Origin: a plasmid
Strand: one strand, 5' to 3'
Assembly: GCF_058153355.1 (NCBI RefSeq)
Contig: NZ_JBLWLY010000002.1
Length of the DNA: 64,000 nucleotides
In this document: one piece after another, positions 1 to 3,000 of the stretch
Position numbering within the stretch: position 1 is the stretch's first letter
How the letters are laid out: every line of letters starts with the position of its first letter
Program-made: the position numbers

Positions 1-3000
1 GTGACTAATCTTCAACAAACTTATTACCGCCAGGTAAAGAACCCGAATCCGGTGTTCACACCCCGTGAAGGTGCCCGGACGCTTCCGTTCTGCGGGAAAC
101 TGATGGAAAAGGCGGTGGGCTTCACCTCCCGTTTTGATTTCGCCATTCATGTGGCACATGCCCGTTCGCTTGGTCTGCGTCGGCGCATGCCACCGGTACT
201 ACGTCGCCGGGCCATTGATGCGCTGCTGCAGGGGCTGTGTTTCCACTATGACCCGCTGGCCAACCGCGTTCAGTGCTCCATCACCACGCTGGCCATTGAG
301 TGCGGACTGGCGACGGAGTCTGATGCCGGAGTACTCTCCATCACCCGAGCCACCCGTGCCCTGACCTCCCTGGCTGAGCTGGGGCTGATTACCTACCAGA
401 CGGAATATGACCCGCTTATCGGGTGCTACATTCCGACCGATATCACGTTCACACCAGCACTGTTTGCCGCTCTCGATGTGTCTGAGGTGGCGGTGGCTTC
501 CGCACGCCGCAGTCGTGTGGAATGGGAAAACAGACAGCGCAAGAAGCAGGGACTGGATACCCTGGGTATGGATGAACTGATGGCGAAAGCCTGGCGTTTT
601 GTGCGTGAGCGTTTCCGCAGTTACCAGACAGAGCTTAAGTCCCGGGGAATAAAGCGTGCCCGTGCGCGTCGTGATGCGAACAGGGAACGTCAGGATATTG
701 TCACCCTGGTGAAACGGCAGCTGACGCGTGAAATCTCGGAAGGGCGCTTCACTAACAATCGTGAGGCGGTAAAATGCGAAGTGGAGCGTCGTGTGAAGGA
801 GCGCATGATTCTGTCACGTAACCGTAATTACAGCCGGCTGGCCACAGCCTCCCCCTGAAAGTGACCTACATGTAACCACAGCGTGCCGCCTTCCATGCCG
901 CTGGCGCGGCATATGTTGGTGGCTGTGTCTGAAAGGTTATATACTCTGCATAAAACCTGACAACACGCTGATTACCAGGCGAATGGGCATTATTCCTCCG
1001 GTTATCGCCTGCTTGTGAAACAATATCACCGGGGCGAATATCGATACTCTGACTCGTTATACCCATACGTGCGACATCAGAAAACCTGTAATTGCCCTTT
1101 ATTGAATGAAGGGAGGAGTCAACTATGAATAGCACCACACATTACGAAAACGCCAATTTCCTGCGCGAGCTGGCCGAAAGCCTGCCTCGTATTTTGCCAG
1201 AAGGCAGTACAGACAAGTCTGCACTATTGCAACGCCTCGCTAATGAAGAACTGGCACGGGCGGTATACGACGAACAGGTACGAGCGAAAGTTGCCGCTGC
1301 TCGCGCCGATAAACGGCCGGGAATGAGTTCCGCGCAACTGCGCCAGCAACTACAGGGATAATGAGATGGACGCTCCAGATTTTACGGTATCAAAGTACCA
1401 GACTGGATCGTTGCAATACGTCCTGAAAAATTAGGAGCGTCCACATGAAAGTATCAACTCTTGGTATCGACCTGGCAAAGAACGTTTTTCAGCTTCATGG
1501 TGTCGATCATGAAGGCCATACTATTTTGCGTAAAAAACTCACCCGGGCTAAGTTTGTTCAGTTTGTGATTCAACTGGAACCTTGTCTGATTGGCATGGAA
1601 GCCTGCTCATCCAGTCATTATTTTGCGCGATTATTCACCCGCTATGGTCATGAGGTAAAACTCATACCTCCGCAGTATGTGAAGCCTTATGTGAAAACGA
1701 ACAAGACGGATGCAGCAGATGCTGAAGCAATCTGCGAAGCGGTAACCCGTCCGAATATGCGTTTTGTTCAGATAAAAACCGAAGAGCAGCAGGCCGTTTT
1801 AGCGTTACACACTGAACGGGGAATACTTATCCGTGAGCGGATTGCCTGTGCCAATAGTTTAAGAGCGTAAGCGCATCATTTAAACCGTCTTTCGCCTCCC
1901 TTTCCTGTTTCCGATACTAATGTCCATTTTCGCAGTAAAAGGACATTTAAGATGAATGCACGAAAGGCGGTACTGGCAGATAATCCGGAATTGATCCTGC
2001 GTGTGCTACAGCTGAGATTTGACGAGTCACTGTCGTACCCGCGCATTTCTGCGCAGACTGGTGTCAGCAAAACCGCCATTTTTTCTCTGGTGAGGCGATT
2101 TCACCAGTAAGGCAGTATGACTTTCCGTGAGACAGATGCTGGCCAACGTGGGATATTTAACGCGGGTTAACATCGTTGTCAGAGCCGCATGGGTGAGCTG
2201 TTGCTACACCCCGGTATTTCCACCACGGAGGCCAGCATGAACAACAATAACACATTGTACGTCGGGTTAGATGTTCACAAAGAATCGATTACTGTCGCTT
2301 ATGCTATCAATTCAGAACCTGTTGAACTGATGGGTAAAATTGGCACATCACCTACTGATATTCAGAATCTTTGTAAACGTCTCAGGTCAAAGTCATCGCA
2401 GGTCAGTATCGTTTATGAAGCGGGGCCCTGTGGTTATGGACTTTATCGTCGGCTGGTGAAATCCGGTTTTGACTGCATGGTCTGCGCCCCCTCACTTATC
2501 CCGAAAAAACCGGGGGAGCGGGTTAAAACCGATCGCCGTGATGCCATCAGACTTGTGCGTTCACTGCGTGCAGGAGATCTTTCTGCTGTCTACGTACCCG
2601 GCATTGAAGATGAGGCATTCCGGGATTTGGCCCGGGCATGGGCATCTGCCCGCGATGATTTACGGCATGCAAGGCAACGTCTGAAATCGTTTCTTCTGGT
2701 TCATGGGGTCCATTATGTCGGGCGAGCAGATTGGGGCCCTGCACACCGACGCTGGCTCAGCAAATACTCATTCGAAAGTCCCTGGCGACAATTAGCTTTT
2801 GACGAACACCGTCGTACAATAGAAGACCGGCAGGCACAATGTGAACGGCTGGAATCCGCCCTGAAGGAGGCCGTTACCGAATGGAGGCTGTATCCGGTAG
2901 TAGAGGCGCTGCAAGCCATGCGAGGGATTCAGTTTATTACTGCGGTTGGATTAATTTCTGAACTGGGTGATCTGACCCGTTTTGAACATCCACGACAACT

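Follow-up and report, generated by a model that had tools for sequence, protein, structure and literature searches.

The window analysed here is a stretch of 64,000 nucleotides from a plasmid (NCBI RefSeq assembly GCF_058153355.1, contig NZ_JBLWLY010000002.1). On its plus strand, a short ORF runs from an ATG at 1952 to a TAA at 2108-2110 and encodes the 52-aa peptide MNARKAVLADNPELILRVLQLRFDESLSYPRISAQTGVSKTAIFSLVRRFHQ. The ORF was correctly described in a first-pass annotation as lying between two IS110-family genes, namely a truncated one (1445-1870) and the transposase gene of ISSso6 (2237-3364). That annotation saw a helix-turn-helix (HTH) look in the peptide and offered three options for it: the N-terminal DNA-binding stub of another transposase family, a small regulator, or noise overlapping a bridge-RNA region. 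Farther upstream, a 78-aa ORF at 1125-1361 (+) sits just downstream of a repA-like gene (1-858) and gives a weak, sub-threshold Pfam match to the PaaA2 antitoxin "stability determinant" (E = 2.4e-3). The features that bear on the short ORF are collected in Table 1.

Table 1. Features in and around the truncated tnpA, in window coordinates.
Feature	Coordinates	Strand	Remarks
IS110-family transposase gene, 5' part	1445..1870	+	141 codons; PF01548, E = 2.6e-14; NF033542
ISCro1-like element, left end (241 nt)	1867..2107	+	terminal repeat GTAAGCGCATC..., 85-nt leader, start of tnpA
Stub ORF	1952..2110	+	first 52 codons of ISCro1-like tnpA plus foreign stop TAA at 2108-2110
IS66-2 left terminal repeat, first 5 nt (GTAAG)	2107..2111	+	gives the stub its stop codon
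ISSso6 (IS110 family, 1520 bp)	2112..3631	+	transposase gene 2237-3364
IS66-2, remainder	3632..5346	+	rest of left repeat; tnpA 3714-4133, tnpB 4130-4480, tnpC from 4511

The upstream IS110-family gene is itself a fragment. Its product matches NF033542 over profile positions 2-145 of 343 (E = 3.2e-45), and alignments with intact copies of the gene in 176 E. coli genomes stop at window position 1866. An ISCro1-like element cuts the gene at 1866/1867 and, through the GTAAG with which its terminal repeat starts, supplies the stop codon (TAA, 1868-1870). No remainder of this IS110-family element was seen in the window.

The terminal repeat of the ISCro1-like element, starting GTAAGCG, begins at 1867, and the ATG of tnpA lies 85 nt inside, the same arrangement as in an intact copy on NZ_CP078136.1 (locus L002). 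Window positions 1867-2107 and positions 3500-3740 of that copy are identical at 241 of 241 nt, terminal repeat and leader included, and the stub occupies the place of the first gene inside a GTAAGCG-type IS66 terminal inverted repeat. In the intact copy, the same ATG opens a tnpA of 215 codons, which after residue 52 reads VFTDWPLSGEY.... The 239 nt at 1868-2106 are shared by 533 plasmids, most often as part of a gene annotated as tnpA, and full copies are named "IS66-like element ISCro1 family" by PGAP.

Because 63 ORFs of at least 30 aa are listed for the first 6 kb of the window, the length of the stub ORF would by itself fall within chance expectation, and homology is decisive. The peptide is identical to residues 1-52 of the 215-aa TnpA WP_218335086.1 and, with an E-value of 1.5e-13, matches positions 2-42 of the 190 in the NCBIfam profile for the IS66-like element accessory protein TnpA (NF038385). 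A tblastn search found it in 476 plasmids, mostly within annotated tnpA and in 468 of them at no less than 95% identity, so the homologs and the conserved reading frame that the first-pass annotation had proposed to look for both exist. Judged from its sequence, the ORF represents codons 1-52 of a tnpA that has 215 codons when intact and belongs to an ISCro1-like element of the IS66 family. By its profile score, too, it is a fragment of an NF038385 member and does not itself qualify as one: its 50.8 bits fall below the curated cutoff of 150 bits, which the intact 215-aa parent exceeds with 283.1 bits. When the 52-aa peptide was used as the protein query, only short fragments of 28-91 aa were recovered, which were uninformative; the 215-aa parent as query revealed the family.

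The same homology bears on the option of chance noise or of an overlap with the guide (bridge) RNA of ISSso6. Such a reading could draw on the abundance of ORFs in these 6 kb and on a 67-aa antisense ORF that overlaps the stub, but it is contradicted by the strength and specificity of the match to IS66 TnpA, and we assign it no weight. The ORF lies wholly outside ISSso6, stopping at 2110 in IS66 sequence, one base before the left boundary at 2112, and Rfam returned no RNA family at the stub. Of the two non-coding ends of ISSso6, the one that is longer and folds strongly (3365-3631) is on the right, the far side from the stub.

Compared with representatives of 50%-identity clusters, the 215-aa parent has 2414 relatives, most of them short TnpA proteins of ~130-140 aa that align to parent residues ~88-211. 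A long TnpA subfamily of 207-224 aa aligns from residue ~15 onward at 36-66% identity. In an alignment of 16 long TnpA proteins, L19, L21, F23, R49, F50, W57 and P58 are invariant or near-invariant, and an AlphaFold2 model of the parent built on this alignment has helices at 12-23, 29-36, 40-53 and 65-72, with a pLDDT of 92-96 for residues 11-50. From this model, the stub is predicted to contain all three helices of the N-terminal HTH that long-form IS66 TnpA proteins conserve. The HTH look is thus borne out, both by the confident three-helix model (parent residues 12-53) and by Pfam, whose only matches to the stub are weak and sub-threshold (Sigma70_r4_2, E = 4.9e-4; HTH_23, E = 7e-3). Missing from the stub are the WPLP motif, helix 65-72, the C-terminal part and the HTH_Tnp_1 domain (PF01527), which covers residues 93-147 of the parent and is absent from the 52 residues. 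A Foldseek comparison of the parent model with the PDB gave generic HTH matches only, at E-values of at least 0.17. Of the three options first offered, the N-terminal DNA-binding stub is the one that stands. It is essentially right and needs one correction: the stub derives from tnpA, which encodes the accessory HTH protein, whereas the DDE transposase is TnpC.

The stop codon of the stub, in turn, lies within the GTAAG terminus of IS66-2, and G2107 is common to this element and the ISCro1-like one. When window positions 2107-2111 are joined to 3632 onward, the result reads GTAAGCGTAAACTGACCGCCGTATGTAGCCATTAAGCC, the left terminal repeat of IS66-2, and the joined sequence (GTAAGCGTAAACTGACCGCCGTATGTAGCC) is identical to the terminal repeat of intact copies (L003 2977.. 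and L008 2496..). Both of these loci carry IS66-2 uninterrupted, and the copy in L008 measures 2506 bp and has an 8-bp target duplication, AGCTAAAA. The remainder of IS66-2 in the window shares 99.4% identity with L008 positions 4-1719; its genes match PF01527 and PF05717, and its tnpC is truncated at about 5346. The tnpA, tnpB and tnpC found downstream of the stub are those of this other IS66 element, the ISCro1-like element ending at 2106/2107 with its own tnpB and tnpC absent.

To the eye, the stub seems to abut ISSso6, because the latter has inserted five bases inside the IS66-2 repeat. The boundaries of ISSso6 were set by comparing a filled site at the yoaE stop codon (L005) with the empty site of another strain (L007, GATGAGTAAGCGTTAACG). 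The empty site reads GAGTAAGCGTTAACG; by this comparison the left-hand GTAAG and the right-hand CG... belong to the target, and ISSso6 proper is GCAGTATGAC...GTCATATCAG. In the window the element sits at GTAAG^CG within the IS66-2 terminal repeat, its boundaries ambiguous by a 2-nt AG core, and it has subterminal inverted repeats at 2116-2130 and 3614-3628 and 99.6-99.7% identity to annotated ISSso6 copies. The same flanks, GTAAG to the left and CG(T/C)... to the right, occur in all six copies examined (the window, L001, L004, L005, L009 and L010). A delimitation by megablast match ends, in which ISSso6 would extend from 2106/2107 to 3650 and cut tnpA directly, was overturned by the empty yoaE site and the flanks of the six copies; its extra 19 nt on the right reflect the similarity between IS66 left and right repeats.

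These boundaries weigh on the question of which element did the cutting. ISSso6 could conceivably have hit the ISCro1-like tnpA directly, with the IS66-2 flank acquired afterwards, either through recombination between two copies of ISSso6 or in a rearrangement that ISSso6 mediated. The visual adjacency of stub and ISSso6 would agree with such a course, as would the multi-copy state of ISSso6 in related genomes, and the window lacks the remainder of the ISCro1-like element, so some rearrangement did happen. We nevertheless regard a direct hit as highly improbable, given that GTAAG and CG flank every one of the six copies and that the empty yoaE site marks GTAAG as target. Moreover, the intact tnpA reads CACCAGGTATTC at the cut point, with no GTAAGCG target for ISSso6, and the flanks of ISSso6 join into a perfect IS66-2 repeat, which would be unexpected from a chimeric origin. 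Since GTAAG is target DNA and the flanks rejoin into the IS66-2 repeat, it is evidently IS66-2, not ISSso6, that broke the ISCro1-like tnpA after codon 52.

A simple insertion of IS66-2 would be expected to leave an 8-bp target duplication, with a right repeat (…GGTGCTCCGTTGACGCTTAC) running into TTTCACCA and then GTATTCACTGACTGG. Searches across the window found neither the right repeat of IS66-2 nor the rest of the ISCro1-like element, including the remaining tnpA, and because both are missing, the ISCro1-like/IS66-2 junction may partly be the product of a deletion or of recombination. Among the records of PLSDB and 5,426 complete E. coli genomes, none covers the ISCro1-like/IS66-2-ISSso6 junction.

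In the order of events that we infer, the ISCro1-like element first landed at 1866/1867, within an IS110-family transposase gene that was already there. IS66-2 would then have inserted into the tnpA of the ISCro1-like element right after codon 52, with the TAA in its GTAAG tip closing the frame, and ISSso6 would later (possibly earlier) have entered its preferred target, GTAAG^CG, five bases inside the IS66-2 repeat. The region can thus be viewed as a four-layer nest of an IS110-family element, an ISCro1-like element, IS66-2 and ISSso6. With a probability that we put at roughly 93%, the short ORF is a dead 5' remnant of the ISCro1-like tnpA, cut by the terminal repeat of IS66-2.

Four of the six ISSso6 copies examined lie in the tips of IS66-family terminal repeats: a left repeat in the window, right-repeat-type sequences in L001 and L009, and an IS66-like repeat in L010. 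The other two occupy chromosomal look-alike sites, one at the yoaE stop codon (GAGTAAG^CGTTAACG) and one in a DNA-primase gene. ISSso6 looks like an element that site-specifically targets the ends of another IS family, a preference of which no description was found in the searchable literature. Its 267-nt non-coding right end (3365-3631, +) has a minimum free energy of -88 kcal/mol (z = -4.05 against shuffled sequences) with a long closing stem, and some strings within it, among them CGTTAGCGCTTGG and ATCAGCGTGA, are similar to the target or to the complement of the target. Rfam matched no family to this segment. It is a probable guide (seek/bridge) RNA locus, and the fold is consistent with a guide RNA being encoded at this end, as in IS1111-type IS110-family elements. 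Insertion at GTAAG^CG would provide a natural donor/target set for studying guide-RNA specificity. On the minus strand, the right end of ISSso6 together with the IS66-2 left repeat (3613-3706) gives a weak Rfam match to the AfaR sRNA (RF02515; E = 6e-4, 36.3 bits against a gathering score of 100), and the AfaR model may include IS66-repeat-like sequence.

Exact 52-aa products are present in many public draft assemblies, as an exact-sequence look-up revealed. Those inspected (L011-L016) are genes running off contig ends at CACCAGG or CACCAGAT, that is, at codon 52/53 of ISCro1-like tnpA, and probably arise where assemblies broke at the first position at which co-resident copies differ. A recurrent breakpoint at codon 52 was considered and rejected as an artefact of applying an exact-match look-up to contig-end genes, since 452 of the 497 records from complete plasmids run contiguous across the cut point and no insertion hotspot is indicated. 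The short database entries that match the stub are fragments or contig-end truncations. A stand-alone small regulator would have a stop codon of its own and be conserved as a short protein; here the homologs are 207-224 aa long, and the small-regulator option is unsupported because it is the inserted element that provides the stop and the parent gene has 215 codons.

A function for the truncated product should nonetheless be weighed. By analogy with truncated transposase-derived repressors, the stub might be an expressed small HTH protein, for example a trans-acting inhibitor or regulator of ISCro1-type elements. More specifically, it might be translated from its native leader and bind ISCro1-type repeats as a three-helix HTH, serving as a trans-dominant modulator of related IS66 elements. 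The native 85-nt leader is indeed kept, with a Shine-Dalgarno-like AAGGA 8 nt upstream of the ATG, and the three HTH helices are complete and confidently modelled in the parent protein. Both the general and the specific version are nevertheless very doubtful. The stub ends at an accidental stop codon brought by the inserted element, and what it has lost, the conserved WPLP motif and helix 65-72, is part of the same confident N-terminal module. A promoter and terminator scan of 1800-2300 found none, including no σ70-like promoter; the junction occurs in none of the complete plasmids or E. coli genomes that were searched; and the public products of exactly these 52 aa come from genes truncated at contig ends. 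The window's other IS66 copies encode TnpA of the short form, and it holds no intact IS66 copy with a long tnpA on which the stub could act. Cut off from tnpB and tnpC, it cannot support transposition. A residual DNA-binding role is possible but unsupported, and the best reading is that of a dead pseudogene fragment. The ORF belongs to a protein family and an IS family that are already known; it is mobile-element debris and no new small gene, and it should be annotated as a pseudogene fragment derived from the tnpA of an ISCro1-like IS66 element rather than as a new small regulator.

The overall build of the region is typical of the IS-in-IS nests of Shigella/EIEC-type IncF virulence plasmids, with which it shares ISSso6 and fragments of IS66-family, IS3, IS21 and IS1 elements. 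Shigella plasmids also carry the closest copies of ISSso6 and IS66-2, whereas the ISCro1-like/IS66-2 junction was not found in PLSDB or the complete E. coli genomes.

Within the IS66 family, the short-form TnpA proteins (~130-142 aa), encoded in the window at 3714-4133 and 54572-55000, occupy the same gene position as the parent of the stub, but they align only to long-form residues ~88-211 and lack the N-terminal HTH that forms the stub. The short-form tnpA at 54572-55000 accompanies an inverted duplication of an IS66-family tnpB-tnpC segment (49500-51226, +, and 52848-54574, -) that is 94.7% identical to the ISCro1-like element and in which one tnpC copy is truncated (479 aa vs 523 aa). Between the inverted copies, an ORF at 51767-52633 resembles, by eye, a group II intron reverse transcriptase.

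The closest counterpart is the long-form IS66 TnpA itself (NF038385, WP_218335086.1). Relative to it, the stub keeps 52 of 215 residues, without WPLP, HTH_Tnp_1 or the C-terminal region; it is without tnpB and tnpC of its own, and its stop is supplied by another IS. What it retains is the same residues 1-52, at the same 85-nt spacing inside the GTAAGCG repeat, and the same conserved N-terminal HTH as the long-form homologs of 207-224 aa.
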